A stretch of DNA of 64,000 nucleotides from Bacillota bacterium (GTDB lineage: Bacteria; Bacillota; Dehalobacteriia; UBA4068; UBA4997), in NCBI GenBank assembly GCA_036677375.1, contig JAVBWO010000012.1, forward strand, positions 173,374 through 237,373, in the 5' to 3' direction. The position numbers were made by a program, and so were the translations under genes. Below the pieces are notes generated by a model, which did not search any database, had not been told where the DNA came from, and saw nothing but the letters and a program-made list of their open reading frames with translations. How positions within the stretch are numbered: the stretch's first letter is position 1; each line of letters starts with the position of its first letter. Below, piece by piece: positions 13,633 through 32,389 of the stretch.

Positions 13633-14832
13633 ATGGAGTTTTTAAAAGGGATCAAGGTGTTGGATATGACACAGTTTCTTTCCGCTTCCTACTGCACCCA
13701 AATTCTGGGCGACTTCGGCGCGGATGTCATGAAGATTGAACAACCGGGGAAAGGCGAAGTCTACAGAACCTACGGACCAAAGTTCATCCATGGCGAAAGC
13801 ACCAGCTTTTTAGCCATGAATAGAAATAAGCGCAGCCTCACCCTGAATATCAAGACTCCGGAAGGCCAGGAGGTTTTACGCAGGCTGGCCAAAGACGCCG
13901 ACGTTCTGGTGGAAAATTTCCGTACCGGTACGCTGAAGAAATACGCCTTGGATTATGAAAGCCTAAAAACCGTCAATCCCCGTCTCGTCTACTGTTCCGT
14001 TTCCGGGTTTGGGCAGACCGGACCTTATGCCGAAAAGGGCGGCTTTGATCTGACGGCGCAAGCCATGTCCGGACTGATGTACGTGACCGGTGAAGCGGAC
14101 CGTCCTCCCGTTAAAGTCGGCTATCCCATCACCGATATCGGCGGCGGGCTCTATGCCGCCTTGGGCATCGTGGCCGCTTTGTGCGGCAGAGAGAAAAGCG
14201 GTCTGGGCCAGTTGGTTGACACCTCTTTATTTGAAGCGGGCGTTGCTTGGGGTATGATGGCCAGCTTGAACTATTTTGCCGATGGCTCCGTCCAGGGACG
14301 CATGGGTTCGGCCAGTCCGCAGAATGCTCCTTACCAAGCCTTTACCGTAAAAGACGGCGCTTTTACCATGGGTACCGGCAACGACGTGCTCTGGGAAAAA
14401 TTTTGCCAGGTCTTTGAAATTACTTATCTCTTGCAGGATGAACGTTATCAAGATAATGCTTCCCGGGTCAAAAACCAAGACCCCCTGGCTGCCGATATTG
14501 AGAAGGCTCTTGCAGATCTGACGGTGGCGGACTGCCTTGAAAGAATGGACAGCGTCGGCATCCCGTGCGGCGCCATCAATTCCATTGATAAGGTGGTCAG
14601 CGACCCTCATGTCACCAATCGCGGCATGGTCTTAAAGATCAACCACCCCTCAGCCGGCGAGATTCCTAATATTGCTTTCCCGGTTCACTTTTCCGGTCAA
14701 ACCTGCCCGGTACGGTATGCCCCTCCCCTCTTGGGCCAGCACAGCCGCGAGATATTGTCTGAGGCCGGTTATAGCAAGGAAGAAATCGACCAACTGATCC
14801 AAAAAGGCGTTACCAGCTCGGTGAACGCATAA
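13633..14832 (+). CDS. CaiB/BaiF family (class III) CoA-transferase
   Basis: 399 aa with N-terminal VLDMTQFLSASYCTQILGDFGADVMKIEQP pattern characteristic of family III CoA-transferases. Confidence 0.85.
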   Translation: MEFLKGIKVLDMTQFLSASYCTQILGDFGADVMKIEQPGKGEVYRTYGPKFIHGESTSFLAMNRNKRSLTLNIKTPEGQEVLRRLAKDADVLVENFRTGTLKKYALDYESLKTVNPRLVYCSVSGFGQTGPYAEKGGFDLTAQAMSGLMYVTGEADRPPVKVGYPITDIGGGLYAALGIVAALCGREKSGLGQLVDTSLFEAGVAWGMMASLNYFADGSVQGRMGSASPQNAPYQAFTVKDGAFTMGTGNDVLWEKFCQVFEITYLLQDERYQDNASRVKNQDPLAADIEKALADLTVADCLERMDSVGIPCGAINSIDKVVSDPHVTNRGMVLKINHPSAGEIPNIAFPVHFSGQTCPVRYAPPLLGQHSREILSEAGYSKEEIDQLIQKGVTSSVNA

Positions 14833-14852
14833 AAATAAGGGAGGACAACGTA

Positions 14853-16214
14853 ATGAGTGAAGCCATGGAGTGCCGCATGAAAGGCGCCTTGCTGGAAGCC
14901 GACCGCTGTCTGCAATGTTATGACCCACCTTGCGCCAAGGGTTGCCCCGCCGGCGTAGAGGTGGATCGTTTCATCCGTCTTTTAAGCAAGGGGGATTTCG
15001 CAGGCGCTGCCGCTGTAATTGAAAAAGACAATCCCATGGGTTGGATCTGCGGTTATATCTGCCCGCAAGAAAGCCTGTGTCAGAAAAACTGTATCTCGCA
15101 TCAATTAGGGCATCCCATCGACATTAAGATCCTACAGCAATACGCCATTGCCCAAAGCCGCGCCATGGGAGAAGGACATCAAGGTTTGAACAAAAATATA
15201 CTCGCCTCCCAGCGGTTAAACATCAACGGCAGCATTTGCGAAATCGATACGCCGGAGCAAGGTTTTGGTAAAGCCGCGGTGGTTGGCGGCGGACCCGGCG
15301 GCATGACCTGCGCCGCTTATTTGCATCAACTAGGCTATGAAGTGGATTTATTTGAAGCCGGAACAAAACTGGGCGGCAGAATGACAAAGGGTATCCCCTC
15401 CTTCCGGATGGATCAGAATATGCTTTACGGCGAGCTTGACCAAATAGCCGCCGGCATCAAAGTCAACTTCGGCAAAAAACTGGGCCGGGATTTTTCCCTG
15501 TCGGATTTAAAAGCGCAAGGATTCCAGAGTATCTTCCTCGCTACAGGCAAATGGAATGAGAAAATGCTGCCTTTGCCTGGAGCCGATCTGGCTGGCGTTT
15601 ACGGTTCTGACGAGATCTTGACCGGCACGGACTGGCAAAAATCAGGTCACCAAAAAGCGGCGATCATCGGCGCCGGCAATGTGGCCATGGATGTGGCGCG
15701 GGTGCTTTACCGGGGCGGTCTGAAAGAAGTTCATGTCTTCTTCATCGGAGCCAATCCGGAAGTGACCGCCTGGCCGGAAGAACGGGAAGAAGTATTCACA
15801 GACGGCGGTATCCTTCATATGCTGGCCATCCCGGAAATAATCCTGGGTGAGGTCGGCAAGGTCGCCGGCTTGAAGCTAAACCGCTCCAAGGTATTAAGGA
15901 AGCCGGACGGCAATTGGAGTGTGGAATCCCTGCCGGATGATCTGGATTTCAATTATCCCGTAGATATGGTTGTCATGGCCATCGGTTGCGGCACTTTCAA
16001 GCAGGAGTTGGAAGCTCTCGGTTTGAAGGTGGATACCATGGGTCATATCTTAGTGGATGAAAATTTGGAAACCAATGTGCCGGGTGTTTTTGCAGGAGGA
16101 GATACCATCGGACAAGGACGCGGCGCTGTGGTTCAGGCCATTGGCGACGGTAAACGCGCCGCTTTGAATATGCATGCTTATTTGCAGGGTCTGGCCCAAA
16201 AGGAGGGCAAATAA
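14853..16214 (+). CDS. PreT-like / glutamate-synthase-small-subunit-like FAD/NAD(P) oxidoreductase with N-terminal Fe-S domain (dihydropyrimidine dehydrogenase subunit homolog)
   Basis: N-terminal Cys cluster CLQCYDPPCAKGCPAG, GGGPGG dinucleotide motif, second GAGNVAMD Rossmann motif. Confidence 0.8.
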   Translation: MSEAMECRMKGALLEADRCLQCYDPPCAKGCPAGVEVDRFIRLLSKGDFAGAAAVIEKDNPMGWICGYICPQESLCQKNCISHQLGHPIDIKILQQYAIAQSRAMGEGHQGLNKNILASQRLNINGSICEIDTPEQGFGKAAVVGGGPGGMTCAAYLHQLGYEVDLFEAGTKLGGRMTKGIPSFRMDQNMLYGELDQIAAGIKVNFGKKLGRDFSLSDLKAQGFQSIFLATGKWNEKMLPLPGADLAGVYGSDEILTGTDWQKSGHQKAAIIGAGNVAMDVARVLYRGGLKEVHVFFIGANPEVTAWPEEREEVFTDGGILHMLAIPEIILGEVGKVAGLKLNRSKVLRKPDGNWSVESLPDDLDFNYPVDMVVMAIGCGTFKQELEALGLKVDTMGHILVDENLETNVPGVFAGGDTIGQGRGAVVQAIGDGKRAALNMHAYLQGLAQKEGK

Positions 16215-17453
16215 ATGGTAAGAAGAGATTTGAGCATCAATTTCTGCGGATTCCACTGTATCAACCCTTTCTTTTTAGCCGCCTGTCCTGTCAGCCGCAC
16301 CGGAGAGATGGTACAGCGGGCCTTTGAAGCAGGCTGGGGAGGTGTTGTGACCAAAAGCATTTCCTTGGATCAGGACTTGCCGGATCACAGCCTTTCGCCC
16401 CGCTTTTGCGGTCTGCGTCCCGGCGGCAGCGGGCTGAAATTACAAAAAAATATCATTGGCATGGGCAATATGGACTTTCGCATCGATATATCGGTGAAAG
16501 ACACTTTTGATAGTTTTGCCCGGGCCAAAGCAGCCTACCCTGACCGCATGCTCATTATCAGTGTCAAGGGAAAATTTCAAAGAGAAGAATGGCATAAACT
16601 GTCCCTTTTGGCCAAAGCAGCCGGAGCCGACGCCGTAGAGGCCTGCCTTTCCTGCCCGGACGCGGGAGCCGGCGGCAGCATCGGACAAAATCCGGAAGCT
16701 TTGCAGAAAGTCCTTTCCTGGATGCGGGAAGTCATTGATCTGCCCATTCTGGTCAAAATGACTCCTCATGTCACCAATTCCGCTATGATCGCCAATGCGG
16801 CGAAGGAAGGCGGCGCCGTGGCGGTGAGCGCCATCAACACCTTCAAAGGCATCGGCGGCATTAATTTAGCAAATGAAACACCTCTGCCCACAGTACGGAA
16901 TCATTCCACCTCCGTAGGAATTTCCGGCGCTAACATACGCCCCATGGCGCAATACTGCGTTTACGAAGTTGCCAAGAATGTCAGCGATTTGCAGATTTCC
17001 GGCGTAGGCGGCATAACCTGCGCGCAAGACGCCATCGAATATTTACTTTTAGGAGCCAGCACCATTCAGGTAGGCACACAGGTCATGCACGAAGGCTACC
17101 GCTTGGTGGAAGATATGGCGGAAGGCTTGAGCCGCTATTTGGAAAAGCACCACTATCGCAGCGTCAGAGAAATGGTGGGCTCGGCCCTCTCCTCTTATGT
17201 GGCATCCACGGAAGGTCTAAGCCGGGAACAGCAGTTGAAGTCCAATGTGGATCAGGAACTGTGCATCCACTGCGGCCGCTGTTATATCGCCTGCCGCGAC
17301 GGCGCTTACCAAGCCATTCGATTCAGCGAAGACCGGGAGGCTACCGTCGAAAAAGAAGACTGCGTGGGCTGCGGCCTTTGCCGTCTGGTTTGTCCCGTGC
17401 CCGGCGCCATTTATTTTACGGATGACGCAGGCAGAAGGGATGCCTTGAATTAA
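16215..17453 (+). CDS. PreA-like dihydroorotate/dihydropyrimidine dehydrogenase-family catalytic subunit with C-terminal 2x[4Fe-4S] ferredoxin domain
   Basis: DHOD/DPD TIM-barrel pattern, C-terminal CIHCGRCYIAC and CVGCGLCRLVCP motifs. Adjacent to the preT-like start. Confidence 0.8.
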   Translation: MVRRDLSINFCGFHCINPFFLAACPVSRTGEMVQRAFEAGWGGVVTKSISLDQDLPDHSLSPRFCGLRPGGSGLKLQKNIIGMGNMDFRIDISVKDTFDSFARAKAAYPDRMLIISVKGKFQREEWHKLSLLAKAAGADAVEACLSCPDAGAGGSIGQNPEALQKVLSWMREVIDLPILVKMTPHVTNSAMIANAAKEGGAVAVSAINTFKGIGGINLANETPLPTVRNHSTSVGISGANIRPMAQYCVYEVAKNVSDLQISGVGGITCAQDAIEYLLLGASTIQVGTQVMHEGYRLVEDMAEGLSRYLEKHHYRSVREMVGSALSSYVASTEGLSREQQLKSNVDQELCIHCGRCYIACRDGAYQAIRFSEDREATVEKEDCVGCGLCRLVCPVPGAIYFTDDAGRRDALN

Positions 17454-17551
17454 AAGGATAAAACAGCCGCACCTCCTTTGCCGGGTGTGGCTGTTATGAT
17501 CAAAAATGCTTTCATACATTAAAATAATAGCTAAGGAAGGGAGGCCCAAAT

Positions 17552-19108
17552 TTGACACAGGACGATTATATTCTAGAGTTTCAGAATGTTACCAAACGTT
17601 TCCCCGGGATCATCGCCAACGACAAAGTAAATCTAAAAATCAAAAGAGGAGAAATTCACGCTCTTTTAGGTGAGAACGGCGCCGGGAAGAGCACTTTAAT
17701 GAATGTTTTGGTGGGACTCTACACTCCGGACGAGGGACAAATCCTCATGAACGGAGAAAAGGTAGAGATCAAAAGCCCAAAGGATTCCATCCATCTGGGG
17801 ATCGGCATGGTACACCAGCATTTTAAGCTGGTAGAAGAACTATCGGTTATGGAAAACATCGTGATCGGCTATGAAAAGCAAGGCTTTGCTTTACATAAAA
17901 AGGCAACCTGCAAACAGTTGGAAGAGCTGTCCGAGCACTATCACTTACCCATCGACCCCAAGGCACTGATCCGGGATCTGTCCGCCGGAGAAAAGCAAAG
18001 AGTAGAGATCGTCAAGATGCTTTACCGCAATGTGAACTTTCTTATTTTGGACGAACCCACTTCAGTTCTCACGCCCCAGGAAGCAGAAAAACTTTTCGAT
18101 TATCTCCGGGAAATGAAGGCCGACAACAAGACCGTTATTTTCATCAGTCATAAGCTGGATGAAGTAATGGCCATCGCGGACCGGGTCACCATTCTGCGCC
18201 AGGGCAAACTCATCGAGACTATGGAAAAAGCGGAAACCAATCCCAAAGACTTAGCCAGAAAGATGATCGGCAAAGAAATGCAAAGTATTGAAAAGAAAAT
18301 CAACGATCATTTGGACAATGCCCCCGTTATCATTGCAGGCAAAAACTTAAACGCCAAAGGTGACGAAGGAGTCTTAGCCATCAAGGATGTCAATATTGAG
18401 ATCCGCCAGGGCGAGATCCTGGGCATCGCCGGCGTTTCCGGCAATGGGCAGTCAGAGCTGGCACAGGTCTTGACCGGCCTGCGTCATCTGGAATCCGGGC
18501 AAATCACGGTAAACGGCAAAGAAATCCGTGGCGGCGCTATGAGCTTTATAAATGCTAAAGTGGGTCATATTCCGGAAGACCGCATCGGTACCGGCTCCAT
18601 CCCTTCCTTCAGCGTTTTGGAAAACGTCATTTTGAAGAAATACAAAAAACCGCCCATCAAGCGCGGCCCCTTCATCGATTACAGGAAAGCCGCCTATTTC
18701 GGCAAAAATCTGCTCAAAGAATTTGACGTCAGAATGCCGTCCTATGATATGCCGGTGAAGCTTCTTTCCGGCGGTAACATGCAAAAACTGATTTTCGCCC
18801 GGGAGATCGACAACGACCCACAGGTCATCATCGCGGTACATCCCAGCTACGGCCTGGATGTCTTGGCTGTGGATATGGTTCATCAATACTTGATTAAAGA
18901 ACAGCAGCGAGGCTGCGCCATCTTACTGATCTCCGAGGACTTAGATGAGATCCTCACCCTTTCCGATTCCATCGCGGTCATGTACAAACATACCCTAACA
19001 CCCAAACGGAACCGCAATGACTGGACCATTGATGAAATAGGCTATGCCATGATGGGGATTGGCAAAAATCAGGCTACTGCCCAAGACGGGGGGGAACATA
19101 TCGCATGA
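17552..19108 (+). CDS. ABC transporter ATP-binding protein, duplicated ATPase domains (nucleoside/sugar type)
   Basis: Two Walker A / signature pairs in 518 aa. TTG start with GGGAGG RBS. Confidence 0.85.
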   Translation: MTQDDYILEFQNVTKRFPGIIANDKVNLKIKRGEIHALLGENGAGKSTLMNVLVGLYTPDEGQILMNGEKVEIKSPKDSIHLGIGMVHQHFKLVEELSVMENIVIGYEKQGFALHKKATCKQLEELSEHYHLPIDPKALIRDLSAGEKQRVEIVKMLYRNVNFLILDEPTSVLTPQEAEKLFDYLREMKADNKTVIFISHKLDEVMAIADRVTILRQGKLIETMEKAETNPKDLARKMIGKEMQSIEKKINDHLDNAPVIIAGKNLNAKGDEGVLAIKDVNIEIRQGEILGIAGVSGNGQSELAQVLTGLRHLESGQITVNGKEIRGGAMSFINAKVGHIPEDRIGTGSIPSFSVLENVILKKYKKPPIKRGPFIDYRKAAYFGKNLLKEFDVRMPSYDMPVKLLSGGNMQKLIFAREIDNDPQVIIAVHPSYGLDVLAVDMVHQYLIKEQQRGCAILLISEDLDEILTLSDSIAVMYKHTLTPKRNRNDWTIDEIGYAMMGIGKNQATAQDGGEHIA

Positions 19109-20250
19109 TCAAAATCGAAAAAAGGCGTACGCCGGCTTTATCTACCAGCATTTTGGTCGGCGTTTTAGCAGTGATCCTGGCTCTGCTCATCAGCGGCATC
19201 GTATTAAAGGTCATGGGCTATGACCCCGTTAAAGTTTTCGGAGAATCTTTCAGCAAGACTTTCTTCACATTAAACGGTGTTTTAGAAAACCTTGTTATGC
19301 TGGTTCCCCTTTCCCTTTGCGCTTTATCCGTGGTGGTAGCGGCCAAAGCGGGCCTCTGGAATATCGGGGTTGAGGGACAGTTTTACGCCGGCGCCATCGC
19401 TGCAACCGGCGTGGCCATGCTGATGCCCAACGCCCCCGGCATCGTGGTGATCCCGGTAATGATCATTGCCGGTGCCCTGGTGGCCGGTCTTTTATGCTAT
19501 ATCTCTGTTCTGCCCAAGATCTATTTTAATATCAGCGAGATCCTGACCACCATTCTTTTAAACAGCGTTGTGGTTTTATTCGTACGATGGCTGGTCTACG
19601 GCCCCTGGAAAGATCCCTCCACTATGGCGGCGCAAACCATTCCCATCGCGGATGCGGCAAAGCTGCCCATTCTGGTACAAGGTTCCAGGCTGCATCTCGG
19701 AGTAGTGATCGCCATTGCGGTCATTGTGACCTGCCATTTCTATCTCAAAAATACCGTTTCCGGTTTTGAGCTGAGAATGGTGGGGGAAAACGCCAAAGGC
19801 TCCCGGTACAACGGCGTCAATATTAAAAAATATTTCTTTATTGCCATGCTGCTTTCCGGCGTTTTATCCGGGATGGCCGGTTCCTTGGAGATCTCCGGGG
19901 TGGTACACCGCCTCCAGCCCACCATCGCAGGGGACTATGGTTTTTCCGCTTTTGCCGTTGCCTGGGTAGCGCGACTGAATGTCTATGCCATCGCCATCAT
20001 CAGCTACCTGTTCTCAGGGCTTTTAGTGGCTGGGTATAAAATGCAGATGATGTCTCTGCCCTACTCTATCACTGGTATGATGAAGGGCCTTATCCTCATC
20101 TTGGTTCTGGGCGGCGAATTCTTGGCTTATTACAAGATCACCTTTGTTAAAAAAGCCCGGACACTTTTACAAACCCAGGAAAATGAAAGCAAGCTTCCGG
20201 TTGCGGAAGCATTAGAACATGCGAAAATATTAGAAGATAAGGAAGCTTAA
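19105..20250 (+). CDS. ABC transporter permease
   Basis: 381 aa polytopic. Start overlaps ATPase stop. Confidence 0.8.
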   Translation: MIKIEKRRTPALSTSILVGVLAVILALLISGIVLKVMGYDPVKVFGESFSKTFFTLNGVLENLVMLVPLSLCALSVVVAAKAGLWNIGVEGQFYAGAIAATGVAMLMPNAPGIVVIPVMIIAGALVAGLLCYISVLPKIYFNISEILTTILLNSVVVLFVRWLVYGPWKDPSTMAAQTIPIADAAKLPILVQGSRLHLGVVIAIAVIVTCHFYLKNTVSGFELRMVGENAKGSRYNGVNIKKYFFIAMLLSGVLSGMAGSLEISGVVHRLQPTIAGDYGFSAFAVAWVARLNVYAIAIISYLFSGLLVAGYKMQMMSLPYSITGMMKGLILILVLGGEFLAYYKITFVKKARTLLQTQENESKLPVAEALEHAKILEDKEA

Positions 20251-21212: not shown

Positions 21213-21280
21213 AGATAAAATAAAATTTAATGACAAAGGAAGAAGGCAGAAAACAAAAAGGAGAAAGAGGAGGTAGATTT

Positions 21281-22408: not shown

Positions 22409-22446
22409 ACCATTATCCACTAACCGATTCACATAGGAGATGCAAA

Positions 22447-24805: not shown

Positions 24806-25837
24806 ATGATGATGAAAGCAGCCAGAATTTATGCGCCCGGCAAACCTTTGCAGATCGACGAAGTAGCAAAACCCCAATTGACTCCGGGCTATGCCTTGAT
24901 TAAAGTAAAAGCCGCCGGCGTCTGCGGCAGTGAATTGGATTTTGTGGAAGGGATCTTCCCCTTCACTCCCCCCTTCACCCTGGGCCATGAGATCGCCGGT
25001 GTGATAGACGAGATTGATCCAGGCTGCCAAACCTCCCTTAAGGTAGGAGACCGGATAGCTGTTTATAACTACATCAACTGCGGCGTCTGCAAATATTGCC
25101 GCAACGATCAGGAAAACATGTGCCCCAATAAAATTGGTCAATTAGGGTTTACCATTGACGGCGGCTTTGCCGAATACGTAGCGGTTCCTCTTTATAATTT
25201 AGTTCCCATTCCGGAAAATGTCAGCTTTGAAGAAGCCGCTATTCTGGCCTGCAGCGGTATGACCGCCATGCATGCTACCCGGCGCGCCGGCACCAAAATG
25301 GGCGATTATGTTGCGGTAAACGGCGTGGGCGGCGTGGGTCTTATGTGCATTCAGGTAGCCAAGATCACCGGCGCTAAGGTTATCGCCATTGCCGATAATG
25401 AAATGCGGGCAGACCTCGCCAAACAAGTGGGCGCCGATTACGCCATCGTCGAGACCGATTACAGCAAGGTTCCCGACAAGATCAAAGCCCTCACCGAAAA
25501 TGAGGGCGTACAGGTATGGTATGACCTGGTAGGCACTAGCGAGGCTTATTATGCCGGCATCCAGAGCCAATGTCTTGGCGGCAAAGTAGTTATTATCGGC
25601 TATCAAAAAGACCATAACATCAACTTCTACCCCGTGGAAATGATGGTAAAGGAAGGCCAGATCATCAGTTCCGTTGCCGGCTGCAAAAAAGATGTGCAAC
25701 TGGCGCTGGATTACACCTCCCAGGGCAAGATCAGCGTAGTAGTAGGCCAGCGTTTCAAACTGGAAGAAGTGAACGACGCCATTCAATTGCTCATCGAGCG
25801 GAAAGCCAAAGGCCGCAGCGTTCTGGTTTTTGAGTAA
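24806..25837 (+). CDS. Zinc-dependent alcohol dehydrogenase (MDR family)
   Basis: GHEIAGVI catalytic Zn motif, structural Zn CGVCKYCRNDQENMC, GVGGVG NAD-binding motif. Confidence 0.85.
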   Translation: MMMKAARIYAPGKPLQIDEVAKPQLTPGYALIKVKAAGVCGSELDFVEGIFPFTPPFTLGHEIAGVIDEIDPGCQTSLKVGDRIAVYNYINCGVCKYCRNDQENMCPNKIGQLGFTIDGGFAEYVAVPLYNLVPIPENVSFEEAAILACSGMTAMHATRRAGTKMGDYVAVNGVGGVGLMCIQVAKITGAKVIAIADNEMRADLAKQVGADYAIVETDYSKVPDKIKALTENEGVQVWYDLVGTSEAYYAGIQSQCLGGKVVIIGYQKDHNINFYPVEMMVKEGQIISSVAGCKKDVQLALDYTSQGKISVVVGQRFKLEEVNDAIQLLIERKAKGRSVLVFE

Positions 25838-25908
25838 TATCATCAAAACCTGCCGGGGAACCGGCTTCTCAAAACGGAGCCGGTTCTCCGTTATAAGCAG
25901 TTAAGGCG

Positions 25909-26181
25909 GTGAAGCCATTGAAAAAAATTACCGTACATGTTCCCGGCCGGCCTGACCTGAAAAATAAAGAATTCCTGCTAGAGAAGGATGACCTGACGGT
26001 GGAACAATTCTTGCTGCAATTTCTCGGCAAGACCCCGGAGGAGTTGGACAGGATTTTTATTTCAGGAAACGGCTTGGTAGACTATATCATTTTTATTAAC
26101 GGAACCATCTGCCGCGACCGCAACTATGTCCTGGAAGATCAGGACAGTATGCTAATCAGCGTCATGATGGGCGGCGGCTAA
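25909..26181 (+). CDS. MoaD/ThiS-family small sulfur-carrier-like protein (C-terminal GG)
   Basis: 90 aa beta-grasp-like protein ending ...MMGGG, immediately upstream of AOR. GTG start. Confidence 0.6.
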   Translation: MKPLKKITVHVPGRPDLKNKEFLLEKDDLTVEQFLLQFLGKTPEELDRIFISGNGLVDYIIFINGTICRDRNYVLEDQDSMLISVMMGGG

Positions 26182-26337
26182 AAGCAGTGGCAGATAGGCT
26201 TTATTCCGGTTTGCGTGTTTAATCGGCAATATCGCCCGCGGTTTTAGTTGATTTATAAAACTTACAAGTCAATTTACAATGGAGTTAAACGGTTTGTTAA
26301 GACAAAAAAGCAAAGACACAAGTTAGGGGGTCTTTAA

Positions 26338-28176
26338 ATGGGGTTCAAGTTTGTTCTGCTGGATATCAATCTGTCAACCGAAGAGATCGCCACCCGTGAA
26401 CTCCCCTTCCACCTCATCAAAGAATATATCGGAGGCAGGGGCCTTGGTGGCAAACTTCTCTTGGATCTGGTGCCGCCCGGCGCCGATCCCTTGGGGGAAG
26501 AGAATGTGATGATCTGGTTGAACGGCATTTTATCCGGCACCTTGATACCCGGCAGCTCCAAGCATGCCGTTATCACAAAGTCACCTGTATCAGGCGCGTA
26601 TTGCGACAGCTACTCCTCCGGCGGGGTCGGTTTCAATATGGTATATTCCGGCTATCATGGCATGATCCTGCGGGGAAAATCGAAAAAACCGTCATATATA
26701 TATATTAAAGACGAAACGGTGGAGATCCGGGACGCTGCCCATCTATGGGGTATGTATTCCTTTGCCGCTTCCGAGAAACTCCTGGCCGAGCTGGGCGGCG
26801 AAGGCTGGGGTCACGCTATGATCGGCCCTGCCGGGGAAAACATGGTCTGCTATGCCGGTATCAACAACGACTATTTCCGCCAGGCCGCCAGAGGCGGCGT
26901 CGGCGCCGTCATGGGGTCGAAGAATATTAAGGCGGTTGTGGCAAAAGGTTCCGGCGGCGTCCCCTGTCTGGATGTGGCAGGCTTCATGAAGCTGCACCAG
27001 GATCGGCTGGCAGCCGCCAAGGTCAATCCAGCGGCGGAGCATCATAAAGCAGCCGGTACCAGCGTTACCTTAGACGTCACGGCGGTGGCTGGTATGCTGC
27101 CCACCAGGAATTTTCAAACCGGCGTCTGCCCGGATTCTTTAGGCGAGCTGGATTCCGAAGGCTATAAGAAAAAAGCCACCGCTTCGGTGGCCTGCCTAGC
27201 CTGCCCCGTTCCTTGCGGCAAGATCCTAAAGTGCCGCCAGATCGACGGCCAGGAATTCCGCATTGAAGGGCCGGAATATGAAACCGCTTGTCTTTTAGGC
27301 ACCAATCTTGGTATCGTTGACTTGAATTTTGTTTCGGAAGCCAATATGCTCTGCGACAATCTGGGCATGGATACCATTTCCGCCGGTAATATTATCGGCT
27401 TTATCATGGAACTGACCCAGCGGGGTCTAATCCCGGCAGAATTCAAAGACCAGGCCATTGCCTTCGGTGATCAAGCAGGCGCTCTCAAAGTCATGGAAGA
27501 TTTGGCCTACAGCAGAGGCATCGGCGCTTTAGCCAAAGGCGGCGTCCGCGCTTTGGCCCGGGCCATCGGACATGATTCCGAAGATTTCGCCATGCAGAGC
27601 AAAGGACTGGAATTTCCAGCCTACGATCCGCGCCGGGGCTTCGGCACCGCGCTTTCCTATGCCGTCACCCCCCGGGGAGCCTGCCACCGCCGGGCCTGGC
27701 CGCCGGGACGTGAGGTGCTGGGCGGCTTCCCGCCCTATGAATTCAAAGAGAAGGGGCAGCTCATCAAGGACCAGTTTGATGAGCGGAATATCCTGCACTC
27801 TTTGATTGCCTGCGATTTCAACTTCTTCGCGGTACCCGTATCCGTTGACCAGTATATGGAATATACCCGGCTGGTGACCGGCATCGATTTCAGTCAGGAA
27901 GAACTGGATATGGCGGTAGACCGTATCGAAAGCACCATCCGTTATTTTAATTCTCTTCAAGGCCTTACCAGGAAGGATGATACCATGCCTAAGCGCGTTC
28001 TGGAGGAACCCATGCCGGAAGGTCCTGCGCAAGGCAAAATGGTGACCAAAGAGGGCTTTGAAGATATGTTGGATCAATATTACGCATTACGAGGCTGGGA
28101 TTCCGACGGCACACCCACCCCAAAAACTTTAGACAAATATGGTATCCGGTCTGGAGGTGGCAAAATATGCGGTTAA
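26338..28176 (+). CDS. Aldehyde:ferredoxin oxidoreductase (tungsten/molybdopterin AOR family)
   Basis: 612 aa with AOR N-terminal and catalytic domain pattern, including the typical ...KSPVSGAY... region. Confidence 0.85.
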   Translation: MGFKFVLLDINLSTEEIATRELPFHLIKEYIGGRGLGGKLLLDLVPPGADPLGEENVMIWLNGILSGTLIPGSSKHAVITKSPVSGAYCDSYSSGGVGFNMVYSGYHGMILRGKSKKPSYIYIKDETVEIRDAAHLWGMYSFAASEKLLAELGGEGWGHAMIGPAGENMVCYAGINNDYFRQAARGGVGAVMGSKNIKAVVAKGSGGVPCLDVAGFMKLHQDRLAAAKVNPAAEHHKAAGTSVTLDVTAVAGMLPTRNFQTGVCPDSLGELDSEGYKKKATASVACLACPVPCGKILKCRQIDGQEFRIEGPEYETACLLGTNLGIVDLNFVSEANMLCDNLGMDTISAGNIIGFIMELTQRGLIPAEFKDQAIAFGDQAGALKVMEDLAYSRGIGALAKGGVRALARAIGHDSEDFAMQSKGLEFPAYDPRRGFGTALSYAVTPRGACHRRAWPPGREVLGGFPPYEFKEKGQLIKDQFDERNILHSLIACDFNFFAVPVSVDQYMEYTRLVTGIDFSQEELDMAVDRIESTIRYFNSLQGLTRKDDTMPKRVLEEPMPEGPAQGKMVTKEGFEDMLDQYYALRGWDSDGTPTPKTLDKYGIRSGGGKICG

Positions 28177-28568
28177 AATTTATTGCTAAAAACTGTGTCG
28201 GCTGCGAAGACTGCACCTTGGTTTGCTCTCTGGTTCATGAAGGCGTTACCGGCCTGGCTCTGGGCAGGATCAAGATCACAAGGAACTATCCGTCATTAGA
28301 AGACCCCCTGATCAAGGGCTATTTTTGCCGACAATGCAAAAAAGCAAAATGTGTGGAAGCTTGTCCCGTTCAAGCTCTCACCCAGGGAGAAGACCTGGTA
28401 AACTTTGATCAGGAGCTTTGCACCGGCTGCGGCGCCTGCGTTGAGGCCTGTCCCTTTCACAGCATATGGATGAACCAAAAAACCGGCTTACCATTTAAGT
28501 GCGATACCTGTCAGGGAGATCCCAGTTGCGTCAAGATTTGTCCTCATGAAGCGTTAAAATGGGAGTAA
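28167..28568 (+). CDS. 4Fe-4S dicluster ferredoxin (AOR-associated)
   Basis: Several CxxCxxCxxxCP motifs. Overlaps AOR stop. Confidence 0.85.
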   Translation: MRLKFIAKNCVGCEDCTLVCSLVHEGVTGLALGRIKITRNYPSLEDPLIKGYFCRQCKKAKCVEACPVQALTQGEDLVNFDQELCTGCGACVEACPFHSIWMNQKTGLPFKCDTCQGDPSCVKICPHEALKWE

Positions 28569-28781
28569 TGGATCAAGCCGGAAAAACAGCCTGTCATCAG
28601 TAGCATGCCTTGTCTTTTCCTTTGGTGCCCGGGAAGACGAACCAAAAGACCGGCTTGCCTTTTAAGTGCGATACCTGTCAGGGAGATCCCAGTTGCGTCA
28701 AGATTTGTCCTCATGAAGCGTTAAAATGGGAGTAATGGATCAAAATCGGGAAAGCAGCCTGTCATTAACAGCATGTCTTGG
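28472..28781 (+). repeat. Two tandem copies of a ~155 bp unit covering the last ~30 codons of the ferredoxin gene plus downstream intergenic sequence
   Basis: Copy 2 begins ~28627. ~95% identity between copies by eye. Copy 2 includes ...KCDTCQGDPSCVKICPHEALKWE* without a start codon. Confidence 0.85.
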
Positions 28782-28854
28782 TCTTTCCCATTGGCGACGG
28801 GGATAAAAAGCAAACTAAAGTTAAAGTATCAGACCAATATTGGAGGGAGTAAAA

Positions 28855-29291
28855 TGACAAGAAGACCTAGGATCATCTTGGCGAAGCCCGGCTTAGACGG
28901 TCATGACAAAGGAGCGCGTCTGGTCGCTATGGCCATGCGCGACGCGGGTATCGATGTGATCTATCTCGGTCTGCGCCAATCCGTGGATGCCATAGTCAAA
29001 GCGGCCGCCGAAAAAGAAGCGGACTTCATCGGTTTAAGCATTTTATCCGGCGTTCACTTGAATGTGGCGGATAAATTATTGAAAAAAGTGGCGAAAGCAG
29101 GGCTTAATTGCCCTGTCGTTATCGGCGGTATCATTCCGCCCCAGGATGAGGTTAAATTAAAAGAGATGGGCATTGCACAGGTGTTCCCCGTCGGCACCAG
29201 CTTTGCCGCAACGGTGGATTGGATCAAGCAGAATTTTGCAGAAACGGCTAAAGGGAGGGCGCTAACATGGCAGATGGAAAAAACTGTGTAA
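28855..29291 (+). CDS. Cobalamin-binding subunit of an acyl-CoA (methylmalonyl-CoA mutase-family) mutase
   Basis: Start re-picked at MTRRPRIIL (GGAGGGAG RBS). B12-binding DxHxxG motif GLDGHDKGA. Rossmann-like domain. Confidence 0.8.
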
Positions 29292-30865
29292 CCGATTCCG
29301 GTATTCCCATCAAGCCCTTCTATACCCCGGAGGACATGGCCGGCTGGGATTATGAAAGCGCTTTGGGTGTTCCCGGCGACTATCCTTATACCAGGGGCGT
29401 CTACAGTAATATGTACTTGGGGAAGATCTGGACCATGCGCCTTTATTCCGGTCTGGCAACGGCGGAGGAAACCAATGAACGTTACCGTTACCTTTTGTCC
29501 CAAGGACAGACCGGCCTTTCCGTGGCTCTTGACCTTCCCACCCAGCTGGGATATGATTCCGATAATTCGCTGGTGGAAGATGAAGTGGGCAGGATCGGTG
29601 TGGCCATCGATACCTTAGCCGACATGGAACGGCTTTTCGAGGGCATTGATTTAGGCAAGATCACCACTTCCTTTACCATCAATTCCACCGCCATTATCAT
29701 TTTGGCCATGTATGTGGCCGCCGCCGTAAAACAGGGCGTACCCATGGATAAGATCAGCGGCACCACGCAAAACGATATGGTCAAGGAATTTTTGGCCAGA
29801 AACACCTATATCTTCCCTATGGAAGACCATATTCGCATCAGCGTCGATATCATCGAATTCTGCGCCAAGCATGTTCCCAAGTGGAATCCCATCAACATTG
29901 CCGGATACCATATCCGGGAAACGGGCGCCGACGCTGTTCAGGAGCTGGCCACCATCTTAAAGACAGCTATCATGATCACAGAGGAAACGTTGAAAAGAGG
30001 CATCGACATCGACAGCTTTGCCCCCCGCCTCTCCTTTGAATTGTGGACGGGTCCGGACTTTTTTGAGGAAGTCGCTAAATACCGGGCGGCCCGCCGCATG
30101 TGGGCCAAGATCATGAAAGAGCGCTTCCATGCCCAAAATCCCAAATCTCTGCTCTTCCGGGTCTTCGCCGGCGGCAACGGCATCACCTTGCCCGCCCAGG
30201 AACCCTTGAACAACGTGGTCAGGGTTACCATGCAGAGCCTGGCTTCCGCTTTAGGCGGCGCTCAGGCCATTCATGCGCCGGCTTATGACGAAGCCATCGC
30301 AACCCCCACCCAGGAAGCTGCTTTACTAGCCTTGCGGACACAGCAGATTCTGGCTTATGAGACAGGCATCACCAAGACGGTCGATCCCCTGGCCGGTTCC
30401 TACTATGTGGAAAATCTCACCGATGAGCTGGAAAAACGGGCCTTTGCCATGATGGACGACATGGACGCCCAAGGCGGTCTCATCGAATGTGTCAATAAAG
30501 GCATCATCCAGCGCCAGGTTCAGGAAAGAGCCTACCAAAAGGAGCTGGCTATCCAAACCGGCGAACGCACAGTTATCGGCGTCAATAAATTCCATAATGC
30601 CGAGGCATCCAAGGTGGATATCCCCATCTATCAGGCGGATGAAAGCATTCGCGCAAAGCAGATCTCCCACCTGCAAAAAGTGAAGGAAAGCAGAAACAAT
30701 CATGCCGTGGCAACCACCTTGACCGCCGTGCGGGAAGCAGCCGCCGCCAGAGCTAACATTTTCCCGGCTGTTTTAGACGCTGTCCAGGCCTATGCCACCG
30801 TAGGGGAAATCACCGATACGCTGCGCAGCGTCATCGGGGAATATCAGGCGCCACCCATTTTCTAA
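29267..30865 (+). CDS. Acyl-CoA mutase large (substrate-binding TIM-barrel) subunit, methylmalonyl-CoA mutase family
   Basis: 532 aa with MCM N-terminal domain pattern: FYTPEDM...YPYTRGVY...MRLYSG. Confidence 0.85.
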   Translation: MADGKNCVTDSGIPIKPFYTPEDMAGWDYESALGVPGDYPYTRGVYSNMYLGKIWTMRLYSGLATAEETNERYRYLLSQGQTGLSVALDLPTQLGYDSDNSLVEDEVGRIGVAIDTLADMERLFEGIDLGKITTSFTINSTAIIILAMYVAAAVKQGVPMDKISGTTQNDMVKEFLARNTYIFPMEDHIRISVDIIEFCAKHVPKWNPINIAGYHIRETGADAVQELATILKTAIMITEETLKRGIDIDSFAPRLSFELWTGPDFFEEVAKYRAARRMWAKIMKERFHAQNPKSLLFRVFAGGNGITLPAQEPLNNVVRVTMQSLASALGGAQAIHAPAYDEAIATPTQEAALLALRTQQILAYETGITKTVDPLAGSYYVENLTDELEKRAFAMMDDMDAQGGLIECVNKGIIQRQVQERAYQKELAIQTGERTVIGVNKFHNAEASKVDIPIYQADESIRAKQISHLQKVKESRNNHAVATTLTAVREAAAARANIFPAVLDAVQAYATVGEITDTLRSVIGEYQAPPIF

Positions 30866-31003
30866 GATCTGCCTGCCCATCAAATAAAATTAGCAGAAAT
30901 AAAAGAGCCGCGGTTTGTTGTGAGTGGATGAACCCGGGTCTTAAATCAGCGGGCAAGTATGAAATTGCTTGTTAACAGGTAAAAGGAAGGAGCACAACTA
31001 TTC

Positions 31004-32389
31004 ATGTGCAATAGCGTTTTAATTAAAAATGGCACCATTACCAATGCCGAAGCGATATTTGCCGGAGACATCCTTATTGAAAACGGCAAAATCAGCCAGA
31101 TCGGCGCCGACCTTAAGGCTCCTGGCATCGAGGTCTATGACGCCGCCGGCATGCTGGTAATGCCAGGTATCATCGATCCTCATGTCCAATTGGAAATCAA
31201 ATACGGCAAATTTCCCATGACCGATGATTTTGACACCGGTACCATTGCCGCCGCCGCCGGCGGTGTCACCACTATCATTGACTTTGCCGACCAGCCCAAA
31301 GGCGTCGCGGCCATTGACGACTTAAAACATAGAATGAGTCTGGCCGACGGCAGGGTCAACGTGGACTATTCCCTGCATATGAGCCTGACCGACACCAAAG
31401 CCGGCGCCGTAGGCGACATCAAAGCCGTGGTGGAAAGCGGCATCGCCAGCTTCAAGCTGTATATGGCCTATAGCCGCCGGGACCGCATGGTCAACGAGGG
31501 TCAGATCGACCATATCATGTCGGAAGCCGCCAAATACGGCGCTATCACCGGTATTCACGGCGAAAACGACAATATGGTGGAATACCTGATCGCCCGCCAT
31601 CAGCAGGAGGGCAAGACAGGCATTGAATACTTCACCCAGGCTCGTCCCGACACGGCGGAGATCATCGCCGTTCAGACCGCCATTACCCTGGCTGAAAGAA
31701 ACCACTGCACCCTTTATGTGCACCATGTCAGCTGCGCCGGTACATTAAATGCCATTAAAGAAGGGCGCAAACGGGGCGTCAGGATCTATGCGGAAACCTG
31801 CCCCGCTTACCTGACCCTCACCGAAGATGTCTATCAAAAAGAAGGCGGCGAGATCTACATTCTCAACCCGGCTTTGCGCCAAGAAAGCGACCGGCTGGCT
31901 CTTTGGCAAGGCATCGTGGACGGCGAGATCGACACCATCGGCACCGACCATTGCTCCTATACTTTAGAACAAAAACGCACCAATAAAGATAATTTTGACG
32001 GCATCCCGGCAGGCTTACCAGGCATCGAGCTTTTATTTCCGGTGATGTACACCGTTGCCGTCGCCGAAAATAAAGTGACTCTGCCCCGCTTATTAGAGCT
32101 GATGACCTATAATCCGGCCCGCATCTTCGGTTTGGCGCCGCAAAAAGGCGTGCTGGCTCCGGGCAGCGACGGGGATATTCTCATCTATGATCCCAGGAAG
32201 ACCTGGCAGGTCGACCCGGCCAATCTTTATATGAACGTCGACTTCACTCCTTTCGACGGCTGGACCATGCAAGGTGAAGTGAAAGCTACCTTCCTCCGGG
32301 GCCAAAAACTCTACGAAAACCATGTATTCTGCGGTCCGCAGCATCGCGGACAATTTGTATTCGGTACGCCGGCCCCTTATCGCCGGTAA
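31004..32389 (+). CDS. Dihydropyrimidinase/hydantoinase-family cyclic amidohydrolase. First metal motif is DPHVQ, not the usual HxH.
   Basis: 461 aa. Putative carboxylated-Lys region IASFKLYMAY. Family pattern holds throughout. Confidence 0.8.
   Translation: MCNSVLIKNGTITNAEAIFAGDILIENGKISQIGADLKAPGIEVYDAAGMLVMPGIIDPHVQLEIKYGKFPMTDDFDTGTIAAAAGGVTTIIDFADQPKGVAAIDDLKHRMSLADGRVNVDYSLHMSLTDTKAGAVGDIKAVVESGIASFKLYMAYSRRDRMVNEGQIDHIMSEAAKYGAITGIHGENDNMVEYLIARHQQEGKTGIEYFTQARPDTAEIIAVQTAITLAERNHCTLYVHHVSCAGTLNAIKEGRKRGVRIYAETCPAYLTLTEDVYQKEGGEIYILNPALRQESDRLALWQGIVDGEIDTIGTDHCSYTLEQKRTNKDNFDGIPAGLPGIELLFPVMYTVAVAENKVTLPRLLELMTYNPARIFGLAPQKGVLAPGSDGDILIYDPRKTWQVDPANLYMNVDFTPFDGWTMQGEVKATFLRGQKLYENHVFCGPQHRGQFVFGTPAPYRR

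Follow-up and report, generated by a model that had tools for sequence, protein, structure and literature searches.

The window, that is, the whole 64 kb stretch of DNA that was analysed, carries on its + strand a run of 17 genes (13633-32389), all of which were confirmed by Pfam and NCBIfam profile searches in the families originally predicted for them (Table 1). The intergenic gaps do not exceed 204 bp and the only strong + strand terminator lies directly 3′ of the last gene, so that transcription as a single unit is plausible. The cluster reaches further left, to 9391, because the − strand genes at 9391-12633 have counterparts which, elsewhere, belong to the cluster itself; together the two groups cover 23 kb. 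The importer on the − strand, divergently transcribed from the main operon, shows 68-75% identity to an ABC system within the clusters of three loci of other genomes (L010, L014 and L015), and the neighbouring TudS-like gene is 54% identical to the one in the L014 cluster.

Table 1. Features of the locus, with window coordinates and the supporting matches or motifs.
Feature	Position	Strand	Evidence
feoB N-terminal part (chromosomal flank outside element)	2555-3975	+	FeoB_N, FeoB_Cyto, Gate domains
attL junction inside feoB	3971-3996	+	FeoB match of N-part ends here
MarR (other element cargo)	4767-5225	+	
DUF6544 (other element cargo)	5200-6099	+	
BlaR1-like M56 sensor (other element cargo)	6415-8826	-	
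BlaI-like repressor (other element cargo)	8807-9238	-	
Second TudS-related putative desulfidase paralog	9391-9960	-	C..CPE..SPSC motifs; NF045597 118 bits, below cut-off 130
Amino-acid-type ABC importer, ATPase	10170-10937	-	
Amino-acid-type ABC importer, permease	10934-11602	-	
Amino-acid-type ABC importer, binding protein	11797-12633	-	SBP_bac_3
Family III CoA-transferase, dicarboxylate type	13633-14832	+	CoA_transf_3 family match
PreT-like subunit	14853-16214	+	Fer4_20 + Pyr_redox_2
PreA-like subunit	16215-17453	+	NF006183 412.6 bits, cut-off 335
Bmp/PnrA-type ABC importer, ATPase	17552-19108	+	Family match
Bmp/PnrA-type ABC importer, two permeases	19105-20250, 20277-21212	+	Family match
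Bmp/PnrA-type ABC importer, binding lipoprotein	21230-22408	+	Bmp family match
TudS-related putative [4Fe-4S] desulfidase, CD3072 family (may begin at 22440)	about 22512-23123	+	NF045597 108 bits, below cut-off 130; PF04463 E=0.16
TenA_C-type paralog 1	23164-23889	+	TIGR04306 126 bits, cut-off 130
TenA_C-type paralog 2, in tandem with paralog 1	23976-24701	+	TIGR04306 136 bits, cut-off 130
Zn-dependent alcohol dehydrogenase (Zn-ADH)	24806-25837	+	Catalytic Cys/His/Glu; structural Cx2Cx2Cx7C site
Small conserved ORF (90 aa) upstream of AOR	25909-26181	+	C-terminus GGG; no family match
Aldehyde:ferredoxin oxidoreductase (AOR)	26338-28176	+	Family match; CxxCxxxC cluster motif
Poly-ferredoxin-like 4Fe-4S subunit	28167-28568	+	Family match
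B12-binding small subunit of split acyl-CoA mutase	28773-29291	+	DGHDKG motif
MCM-family large subunit of split mutase	29267-30865	+	TIGR00641 688 bits
Dihydropyrimidinase/hydantoinase-family cyclic amidohydrolase	31004-32389	+	TIGR02033 430 bits, cut-off 393
Intrinsic-terminator-like hairpin closing the operon	32400-32443	+	18 pairs, then T-rich tail TTCTCTT
Large serine recombinase of element	32701-34341	+	Resolvase + Recombinase + Zn_ribbon_recom
attR junction	34552-34580	+	Dyad symmetry 18/29
feoB C-terminal part (chromosomal flank)	34581-35304	+	Rest of disrupted feoB

The gene set is the cargo of a 30.6 kb serine-recombinase mobile element inserted in feoB, in agreement with its having been described as an island. 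The N-terminal part of feoB aligns to residues 4-449 of an intact FeoB paralog, convincingly to about 436, and the candidate crossover dinucleotides are TT (3971-3972) or CC (3974-3975) at attL and TT (34576-34577) or CC (34579-34580) at attR, either of which rebuilds an in-frame feoB; the reconstructed attP has the left arm TTTTGCCATAGGTATGGCGGC and the right arm GCCACCATCCTTAGGGCAAAA. A recombinase homolog, 75% identical, occupies the equivalent place in L013 and L096.

The gene set turns up again, variously arranged, in four or more further lineages, which goes beyond chance, and its members are co-located there rather than scattered; the complete set occurs in at least three orders, at 44-95% protein identity. 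L013 and L096 keep the order of the window (75-95% aa identity); L014 reads PreT-PreA-epimerase-ABC-ABC-TudS-like-TenAx2-ADH-small ORF-AOR-ferredoxin, the L098+L010 composite reads mutase-CoA-transferase-dihydropyrimidinase-PreT-PreA-epimerase-ABC-ABC-TudS-like-TenAx3-ADH-ALDH-GntR, and L011 reads B12-mutase-ALDH-ABC-TudS-like-TenAx2-ADH. Two modules are apparent: an upper one of transport, TudS-like proteins, TenA copies, Zn-ADH and AOR or aldehyde dehydrogenase (ALDH), and a lower one of PreTA, the dihydropyrimidinase-like enzyme, CoA-transferase and B12 mutase. In the window the upper module interrupts the lower one, and in L101 the lower module stands alone, with identical residue signatures. 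The Bmp-type importer is kept in L010, L011, L013, L014 and L098, and CoA-transferase and mutase are paired in L098, L099, L100 and L101 (56-78% identity).

Judged by its families, the PreT/PreA-like pair is a two-subunit reductase of the dihydropyrimidine-dehydrogenase (DPD) type, and the match of its PreA subunit to the PreA equivalog speaks against placing this homolog in glutamate synthase or DHOD proper. This subunit has Cys where pig DPD has Asn668, a position which we take to be functionally relevant; the change is found in the PreA of all the cluster homologs, while among 150 family representatives scanned the position is Asn in 78 motif matches and Cys in 2. The metal motif of the amidohydrolase is DPHVQ as against DxHxH, and DxHVQ recurs in all eight cluster-linked homologs, the solved enzymes having DxHTH. 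The large subunit of the mutase, which belongs to the MCM family and not to that of glutamate mutase, retains the carboxylate-binding Tyr/Arg, with equivalents of Tyr89, Arg207 and His244, and carries RVFAGGNG in place of RxHxQTxG (HxQT to FAGG, again at a position assumed to be functionally relevant), as does every cluster homolog. Both TenA proteins, the first of which starts at 23164 (the ORF start at 22969 being incorrect), keep Cys135, Glu205 and the Tyr positions, have a conserved Lys at 109, and show Asn at position 44; in their clade Cys135 and Glu205 are invariant, and 65 of the 72 members have Asn for Asp44. It is through Asp44 that TenA contacts the 4-amino group of HMP (PMC5623701). 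Four enzymes with clade-specific changes, each at a position that their characterised relatives conserve, thus argue against the ordinary uracil or thymine pathway.

As for the remaining components, the TudS-like protein encoded at 22512-23123 has a pattern (C16, C53-P-E55, S109-P-S111-C112) that matches Cys10/43/104, Glu45 and Ser101/103 of TudS (PMC10611767). Wherever a TenA-type cluster was seen, the Zn-ADH gene came immediately 3′ of its final TenA. The 90-aa ORF had been called MoaD-like: it ends in GGG, it has no family match of its own, and it is 82% identical to its L013 counterpart and 36% to that of L014, which matches ThiS at E=2e-4, so that a ThiS/MoaD-like beta-grasp protein is possible, if weakly indicated. 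In two lineages (L010 and L011) an Aldedh protein stands in place of AOR with the neighbours unchanged, which points to a required aldehyde-oxidation step. Of the solved structures, the CoA-transferase is closest to 4ed9, a CaiB/BaiF-family protein that is itself uncharacterised; the closest enzyme with a name is succinate--hydroxymethylglutarate CoA-transferase. Cluster proteins of L010 and L014 pass the methylmalonyl-CoA epimerase equivalog, which fits an intermediate of the malonyl-CoA type; together with the AOR/ALDH interchange this lends support to the downstream sequence put forward in the original prediction, from aldehyde through a malonate-type acid and CoA-transferase to an MCM-type mutase.

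The original idea that these genes form a conserved and coherent cluster for the anaerobic catabolism of a compound with a pyrimidine ring is supported. Our tentative preference, at somewhat less than even probability, is for one conserved pathway acting on an imported pyrimidine whose C5 methyl group is substituted; the ring would be favoured to be of the uracil or thiouracil type, with a thiamine-pyrimidine type as the alternative, and this class assignment draws on the names of the protein families and a small number of residue changes. We infer the following chemistry and order. In the upper part: (i) the Bmp-type and amino-acid-type importers would bring in the compound or compounds; (ii) the two TudS-like Fe-S enzymes would strip a thio group; (iii) at the active-site Cys of the two TenA_C paralogs, water would displace the group on the C5-methylene, giving a 5-hydroxymethyl pyrimidine; (iv) the Zn-ADH would convert CH2OH to CHO; (v) and AOR with its ferredoxin subunit would yield the 5-carboxylate. 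In the lower part, PreT/PreA would reduce C5=C6, the amidohydrolase would open the ring to an N-substituted (aminomethyl)malonate, the CoA-transferase would form its CoA ester, and the B12 mutase, preceded in other genomes by the epimerase, would turn the branched malonyl-CoA into a linear ester of the succinyl- or aspartyl-CoA type. The constant position of Zn-ADH after the last TenA, joined to a TenA chemistry that yields a hydroxymethyl group, supports the aldehyde-oxidation step. The order of the steps is uncertain, since the ALDHs that replace AOR most resemble glutamate-semialdehyde dehydrogenases, for which an aliphatic, ring-opened aldehyde would be better suited than a ring-bound one. 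Against this reading count the scores of the TudS-like proteins, below the family cut-offs, the presence of the RVFAGGNG mutase clade in clusters that lack TenA, PreTA and dihydropyrimidinase (L100), so that it may comprise nothing more than true methylmalonyl-CoA mutases, and, as regards catabolism, the Christensenellaceae loci, where TudS-like and TenA genes accompany an ECF transporter only, in a salvage-like context and with no catabolic genes. No published description of such a route was found in the literature searched; it would appear to be an undescribed anaerobic breakdown of C5-substituted-methyl pyrimidines, ending in an unusual B12 mutase and recurring in several uncultured bacteria.

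The same chemical logic could be applied to a thiamine pyrimidine (HMP, its aminomethyl or formylaminomethyl forms, thiamine or analogues), which we consider unlikely. TenA would release HMP, ADH and AOR would produce 4-amino-2-methylpyrimidine-5-carboxylate, and ring reduction, opening and the CoA and mutase steps would follow. TenA is the thiaminase II family, and the second paralog just exceeds the TIGR04306 cut-off. L008, which holds the closest TenA homologs, has its TenA pair beside an aminohydrolase of the TRZ/ATZ type and a protein resembling thiaminase I (TIGR04541, 116 bits), neighbours that favour an aminopyrimidine of the thiamine type over our preferred ring. In L099, moreover, the same mutase, CoA-transferase and amidohydrolase adjoin an NMT1/THI5-like binding protein, and the carboxylate in question was reportedly described in the 1960s as a bacterial catabolite of thiamine. 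However, the residue that would bind the 4-amino group is the one replaced in most of the TenA clade, no gene of the window cluster is an evident deaminase, no TPP riboswitch was found in the window or in seven related loci, and the TudS-like, PreA and dihydropyrimidinase families all indicate an oxo- or thio-pyrimidine ring.

The main route first suggested, in which thymine or another simple pyrimidine would pass through PreTA and dihydropyrimidinase, with decarbamoylation and transamination encoded elsewhere, to beta-aminoisobutyrate, methylmalonate semialdehyde, methylmalonate, methylmalonyl-CoA and succinyl-CoA, appears quite improbable. It would assign the last three steps to AOR, CoA-transferase and mutase, and would regard TenA and the TudS-like proteins as side-entry or unrelated functions. 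PreA and the amidohydrolase do exceed their equivalog cut-offs, and the carboxylate-binding residues of the mutase and the epimerase of the related clusters suit it. So does L100, whose AOR, 3-hydroxyisobutyrate-dehydrogenase-like enzyme, CoA-transferase, epimerase and mutase, present without TenA, PreTA or dihydropyrimidinase genes, are what a hydroxyisobutyrate or methylmalonate-semialdehyde route needs. Yet family profile searches detected neither beta-ureidopropionase (carbamoylase) nor aminotransferase, both needed here, in the whole 64 kb window, extending the absence already noted for the cluster, nor in the full L098+L010 composite; this absence fits a route without release of a free beta-amino acid. 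The thymine route also leaves the invariant core of TudS-like genes, TenA copies and a Zn-ADH strictly adjacent to the last of these without a role, and PreA, dihydropyrimidinase (HxH to HxQ), mutase and TenA are all non-canonical at conserved positions. The caveat first entered, which left room for substituted pyrimidines (HMP and thiolated bases among them), was the better lead.

That there is no single pathway, and that independent modules merely share the element (TenA and TudS-like proteins plus an importer for salvage, PreTA with dihydropyrimidinase, and an AOR and methylmalonyl-CoA acid metabolism), is very unlikely: mobile elements do collect cargo, and the upper and lower modules also occur separately (TudS-like with TenA in Christensenellaceae, the lower module in L101, mutase with CoA-transferase and AOR in L100), but the complete set persists across several gene orders and a wide range of identity, in the window the lower module flanks the upper one within one unit that a single terminator bounds, and the exchange of AOR for ALDH preserves the function.

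The genes of the proposed island lie on the plus strand in the order family III CoA-transferase, PreT-like protein, PreA, Bmp-type ABC importer, TudS-related protein, two tandem TenA paralogs, zinc-dependent alcohol dehydrogenase (Zn-ADH), a 90-aa ORF, AOR, ferredoxin subunit, split B12 mutase and dihydropyrimidinase/hydantoinase-family amidohydrolase; the gaps between them measure at most 204 bp, and the sole strong plus-strand terminator (18 pairs) stands directly 3′ of the last gene. Each family named for this putative operon in the original prediction was recovered by the ORF listing and by Pfam and NCBIfam profiles, the weak label being that of the "MoaD-like" ORF, which has no family match, ends in GGG, and has a counterpart in a related Bacillota MAG (L014) that reaches ThiS with E=2e-4. 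Neither a beta-ureidopropionase nor an aminotransferase had been seen in the cluster at first reading, and profile searches of the whole 64 kb window find none, the remaining genes of the window being housekeeping genes.

The cluster extends beyond the limits first given to it, and it is conserved. Upstream and divergent from the operon are a second TudS-related paralog, with 54% identity to the in-cluster TudS-like gene of L014 and of a JGI metagenome locus (L015), and an SBP_bac_3-type ABC importer whose counterparts (68–75% identity) sit within the cluster in three related loci (L010, L014 and L015).

Features of the window, with positions in nucleotides
Feature	Position	Strand	Remark
DtxR-type repressor	1595-2104		
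feoB, N-terminal part	2555-3975		
Mobile element	~3973-34580		~30.6 kb
MarR regulator, DUF6544/DUF6920 protein, BlaR1-like M56 sensor with WG repeats, BlaI-type repressor	4767-9238		other cargo
Second TudS-related paralog	9391-9960	-	
SBP_bac_3-type ABC importer	10170-12633	-	
AT-rich stretch	12634-13632		~40% GC
Putative catabolic operon	13633-32389	+	
TenA1	23164-23889	+	
TenA2	23976-24701	+	
Terminator	32400-32443	+	18 pairs
Large serine recombinase	32701-34341		right end of element
feoB, C-terminal part	34581-35304		
DtxR-type repressor	37138-37512		
Second feoAB locus	~37.7-39.96 kb		intact
Intact FeoB paralog	37949-39955		

The AT-rich stretch of 1 kb that separates the divergent importer from the main operon holds just one ORF, of 83 aa and without family match, and gives no Rfam match; its final 364 bases are ~80% conserved in a related locus (L013). 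No regulator gene adjoins it, in contrast to other versions of the cluster, which carry a GntR/FCD regulator. At the Rfam gathering threshold, neither a riboswitch nor a TPP element is found in the window and 7 related loci, and control by a thiamine regulon is therefore unsupported.

The neighbourhoods of the TenA, PreA and mutase homologs in other genomes and metagenome contigs contain the same gene set in other orders. In L014 this is PreT, PreA, epimerase, two ABC genes, TudS-like, two TenA, ADH, small ORF, AOR and ferredoxin; two loci that overlap at 98.7% identity (L098 and L010) give a composite cluster of fused mutase, CoA-transferase, amidohydrolase, PreT, PreA, epimerase, two ABC genes, TudS-like, three TenA, ADH, aldehyde dehydrogenase and GntR; and L011 reads B12 mutase, aldehyde dehydrogenase, ABC, TudS-like, two TenA and ADH. 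The "glyoxalase" genes of the related clusters score 130 and 134 bits on the methylmalonyl-CoA epimerase equivalog (cut-off 115), AOR and aldehyde dehydrogenase replace each other among the clusters, and the Zn-ADH directly follows the last TenA in every case. A carbamoylase or beta-ureidopropionase is absent from the composite as from the 64 kb window, and may be encoded elsewhere in the genome.

One related locus (L101) carries B12 mutase, amidohydrolase, CoA-transferase, PreT, PreA and epimerase at 57–78% identity, and the 21.6 kb of it that were covered contain no TenA, TudS-like, ADH or AOR gene. Thus two modules can be separated: an upper one comprising transport, TudS-like, TenA, ADH and AOR or aldehyde dehydrogenase, and a lower one comprising PreTA, amidohydrolase, CoA-transferase, epimerase and mutase. 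When contigs of species-representative genomes were scanned with TenA2, only 5 loci appeared, at ~50% identity, with TudS-like, TenA and ECF transporter genes and none of the catabolic ones; the full cluster is thus absent from the species representatives reached, or too diverged in them.

Other arrangements of these genes were encountered. In Christensenellaceae and Clostridia MAGs (L003–L007) the TudS-like/TenA pair is divergently arranged and adjoins an ECF-type transporter (S component, CbiQ and two ATPases) and an MFS gene; catabolic genes are lacking there, and the arrangement resembles a salvage setting for these two enzymes. The closest TenA homologs (83%), on JGI contig Ga0247841_10002296 (L008/L009), stand beside a 500-aa thiaminase-I-like protein, and further neighbours are GntR, RidA, AllG, a cyclase, a TRZ/ATZ-type aminohydrolase, a class III aminotransferase and a molybdenum hydroxylase (FAD and 2Fe-2S subunits); together they may constitute another way of degrading the same class of compound. 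In L015 (JGI Ga0617834_015) the cluster is duplicated in a near-perfect inverted form around position 10,100, each arm carrying the genes in mirror image; an assembly artefact is the most likely cause.

We infer all functions from sequence and gene neighbourhood. In the lower module, PreA scores 412.6 bits on the NCBIfam PreA equivalog (cut-off 335) and keeps the equivalents of Lys574, Asn609, Cys671, Asn736 and Thr737 of pig DPD; at the position of Asn668, every cluster homolog has Cys, a residue present there in 2 of the motif matches among the 150 PreA family representatives scanned, as against Asn in 78, and the closest representative from outside the cluster has 42% identity. The amidohydrolase (TIGR02033, 430 bits, cut-off 393) has the Lys (carbamylated in the binuclear metal site of dihydropyrimidinases), His, His and Asp metal ligands, and reads DPHVQ (HxQ) where solved dihydropyrimidinases read DxHTH (HxH), a variant found in 8/8 cluster-linked amidohydrolases, down to 44% identity. 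With reductive pyrimidine catabolism (PreT/PreA or DPD, dihydropyrimidinase, beta-ureidopropionase) the cluster shares, by family assignment, a two-subunit PreT/PreA-type reductase and a dihydropyrimidinase-family amidohydrolase, and it would share the logic of C5=C6 reduction before ring hydrolysis. It departs from that system in the Cys of PreA and the HxQ of the amidohydrolase, in having neither beta-ureidopropionase nor aminotransferase, and in the enzymes added on both sides, with TenA, TudS-like, ADH and AOR predicted to act before and CoA-transferase and B12 mutase after.

In the upper module, when aligned to B. subtilis TenA, the TenA proteins retain Cys135 and Glu205 in 72/72 clade members, together with the equivalents of Tyr47, Tyr112 and Tyr163, whereas at the position of Asp44, where the 4-amino group of HMP, the thiamine pyrimidine, is bound (PMC5623701), Asn stands in the two paralogs of the window and in 65/72 clade members. 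Phe208 is replaced by Gln or Ser and a new conserved Lys appears at position 109; on TIGR04306 (cut-off 130) TenA2 scores 136.0 and TenA1 126.2 bits. The TenA_C fold and the catalytic residues being conserved, the product of the two paralogs is expected to be a hydroxymethyl compound. The fold family, Cys135, Glu205 and the three Tyr are thus those of the TenA_C thiaminase II of thiamine pyrimidine salvage, but the residues at 44, 208 and 109 differ, two or three paralogs occur in tandem, and in the neighbourhood a TPP riboswitch and thiamine biosynthesis genes are missing, while an ADH and an aldehyde-oxidising enzyme follow.

Both TudS-like paralogs show C16, C53-P-E55 and S109-P-S111-C112, by pattern match and not by structural alignment, which corresponds to the three Cys ligands, the Glu and the Ser-x-Ser of TudS/DUF523 thiouracil desulfidases (PMC10611767). 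Unlike these, they are distant relatives (108 and 118 bits on NF045597, below its cut-off of 130; PF04463 E=0.16; no match in a PDB sequence search), they are longer, with a C-terminal extension, and there are two per cluster. The Zn-ADH has intact catalytic and structural zinc motifs, on which ground its reading as an enoyl-CoA reductase was rejected. AOR scores 226 bits on AFOR_N and 378 bits on AFOR_C (Pfam), contains the [4Fe-4S] Cys motif CLACPVPC and finds its best solved match in P. furiosus AOR (395 bits); the aldehyde dehydrogenases that replace it resemble glutamate-semialdehyde dehydrogenases.

The large mutase subunit belongs to the MCM family (TIGR00641, 688 bits), and the small subunit (TIGR00640, 128 bits) carries DGHDKG (DxHxxG) at residue 42. 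MRLYSGL, FLARNTYIF and GYHIRE align with Tyr89, Arg207 and His244 of human MCM, the three being kept in all cluster mutase homologs; in MCM, Tyr89 and Arg207 are the carboxylate-binding residues. The barrel motif RxHxQTxG, presumably on a strand lining the active site, is replaced by RVFAGGNG in the window mutase and in every cluster-linked homolog, whereas it is canonical in human MCM, HcmA and all ~70 generic metagenomic homologs examined. A scan of metagenome contigs with the mutase gave mostly generic split MCMs, at up to 56% identity and without cluster genes, and these served as the contrast set. Among the best 120 homologs, RVF[AS]GGNG occurs in 59, RTFSGSCG in ~40 and the canonical motif in 14; MCMs bearing the source names Thermoanaerobacter and Thermotomaculum carry the canonical motif. 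Among solved structures the mutase is matched best by 2-hydroxyisobutyryl-CoA mutase rather than by MCM. The CoA-transferase of the cluster, whose closest named solved relative is succinate-hydroxymethylglutarate CoA-transferase, is a regular partner of the RVFAGGNG clade, a clade that occurs in other contexts too. The idea that the cluster-linked mutases are all and only the homologs with at least 68% identity was dropped, as L098 (56%) is linked and RVFAGGNG is found elsewhere.

Two of these other contexts and a second clade may be mentioned. A Deltaproteobacteria MAG (L099; GCA_001797865.1, MGQP01000005.1, 14–14448) brings together an RVFAGGNG mutase, the CoA-transferase and an HVQ-type amidohydrolase with a xanthine-dehydrogenase-type molybdenum enzyme (molybdenum hydroxylase), two further amidohydrolases and an NMT1/THI5-like ABC importer; this set may represent an oxidative parallel to the same lower pathway. 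Another contig (L100; ENA ERZ27252234, k141_1929448) has two fused B12-mutase genes, CoA-transferase, epimerase, AOR, a 3-hydroxyisobutyrate-dehydrogenase-like gene, TRAP transporters, an M20 peptidase and citrate-lyase-like genes, and no pyrimidine-ring enzymes are present in it. The second clade of the MCM family has RTFSGSCG for RxHxQTxG with Tyr and Arg kept (P0274, P0276, P0285, P0303, P0319, P0325, P0340 and ~30 more), its hosts being Betaproteobacteria, Burkholderiales and Desulfomonile MAGs.

With the methylmalonyl-CoA mutase pathway the cluster has in common the MCM family, the split B12-binding subunit with DxHxxG, the Tyr89, Arg207 and His244 equivalents and, in related clusters, the epimerase equivalog; it differs in the RVFAGGNG motif and in a neighbourhood of heterocycle catabolism rather than propionate metabolism, and no MeaB-type chaperone is encoded in it. 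The first two predicted ring steps would be those of reductive pyrimidine catabolism and the last predicted steps those of the methylmalonyl-CoA pathway, with one defining feature of each apparently failing, the beta-ureidopropionase of the former and the mutase motif of the latter. There is a real chance that the mutase has a new specificity, and the cluster possibly points to a new substrate class for B12-dependent acyl-CoA mutases. In the nicotinate fermentation of Eubacterium barkeri, said to have been described by Alhapel and colleagues in 2006, the ring is reportedly reduced and then opened by an enzyme of the amidohydrolase family, a hydroxymethyl and a formyl branch are interconverted, and a branched dicarboxylate is made linear by a B12-dependent carbon-skeleton mutase, this being 2-methyleneglutarate mutase acting on the free acid. 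In its overall design for an anaerobic N-heterocycle the cluster resembles that system, which differs in its pyridine rather than pyrimidine ring and its other mutase, and in lacking CoA esters, TenA, TudS and AOR.

From these elements the following route may be proposed: (i) by TenA chemistry, a hydroxyl would take the place of the leaving group that a pyrimidine carries on its C5-methylene; (ii) the ADH, and then the aldehyde-oxidising enzyme, would convert CH2OH to CHO and COOH, for which the adjacency of the ADH and the presence of the second enzyme after it argue; (iii) PreTA and the amidohydrolase, whose presence argues for ring reduction and hydrolysis, would leave the C5 carboxylate in an N-substituted (aminomethyl)malonate; (iv) and finally, the CoA-transferase, the epimerase and the mutase would turn a branched malonyl-CoA into a linear product, with which a CoA-transferase of dicarboxylate type, the epimerase and a mutase that keeps the carboxylate site are consistent. 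With a uracil-like ring, the end product would be N-carbamoyl-aspartyl-CoA. Such a route would dispense with carbamoylase and aminotransferase, in agreement with the lack of both in two lineages. The order of oxidation and ring opening is uncertain, because of the resemblance of the AOR-replacing dehydrogenases to glutamate-semialdehyde dehydrogenases.

Because of the Cys/Glu/Ser-x-Ser pattern of the TudS-like proteins, taken with the change of Asp44 to Asn in TenA, we prefer 5-(X-methyl)(thio)uracils to the thiamine pyrimidine as substrate class. The thiamine pyrimidine is kept as an alternative, as the thiaminase-I-like neighbour and the aminohydrolase in L008 and the NMT1-type binding protein in L099 would be in keeping with it.

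Starting from 5-(X-methyl)(thio)uracils, with tRNA wobble bases and phage hypermodified thymine as possible sources, a bolder reading can be drawn, to which we would give only a slender chance: that the lower module performs a previously unknown conversion of a C5-carboxylated to a C6-carboxylated pyrimidine at the open-chain stage. Uracil-5-carboxylate (iso-orotate), formed from these uracils, would be reduced by the variant PreTA and opened by the HxQ amidohydrolase to (ureidomethyl)malonate, which the CoA-transferase would activate; a B12 mutase belonging to a new specificity class (RVFAGGNG, carboxylate site kept) would then convert it to N-carbamoyl-aspartyl-CoA. If true, this would deliver N-carbamoyl-aspartate, an intermediate of both pyrimidine biosynthesis and orotate fermentation, and would explain why carbamoylase and aminotransferase are not needed.

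Full-text literature searches yielded no description of the cluster or of the proposed intermediates, and to our knowledge the anaerobic fates of modified pyrimidines, such as thiolated or 5-substituted tRNA bases, hypermodified phage bases and the thiamine pyrimidine, are essentially uncharted. The cluster would offer a concrete and testable gene set for their degradation, and within PreA, dihydropyrimidinase, TenA and the MCM-family mutases it marks out clades whose active-site motifs are altered and to which automatic annotation now gives canonical enzyme names.

To judge from its ends, the catabolic island is a mobile element, which would make serine-recombinase elements vehicles for entire pathways of this kind. 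It splits feoB into two parts that rejoin as one ORF of 714 aa, alignable in a single segment (residues 30–706) to the intact FeoB paralog, and ~240 bp separate the right junction from the large serine recombinase at the right end of the element. In the reconstructed attP, 18/29 positions show dyad symmetry about a TT common to both junctions; an alternative core, CC, lies three bases off, and feoB is rebuilt in frame with either, the rebuilt attB being …GGCAGATT[T/A]CCCACCTTGATT…. As in the large-serine-recombinase elements that split host genes (e.g., SCC, skin and fdxN types), a recombinase with Resolvase, Recombinase and Zn-ribbon domains is encoded at one end, the divided target gene can be reconstructed in frame, and the reconstructed attP has its dyad around a common dinucleotide. 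Unlike those, the cargo here is a catabolic pathway together with BlaR/BlaI and MarR genes, for which no link to the catabolic genes is evident, and excision is a prediction. No phage or conjugation genes were seen on the element. In the sole relative examined (L096/L097; JGI Ga0325302_1114403 and Logan SRR34859213), the same element is found at 78–84% nucleotide identity, in the same feoB site and with the same chromosomal flank, so that the site is occupied and gives no evidence of an empty target or of excision. The window also has a second, intact feoAB locus, with DtxR-type repressors next to it, and the interrupted copy of feoB may therefore be dispensable or switchable.
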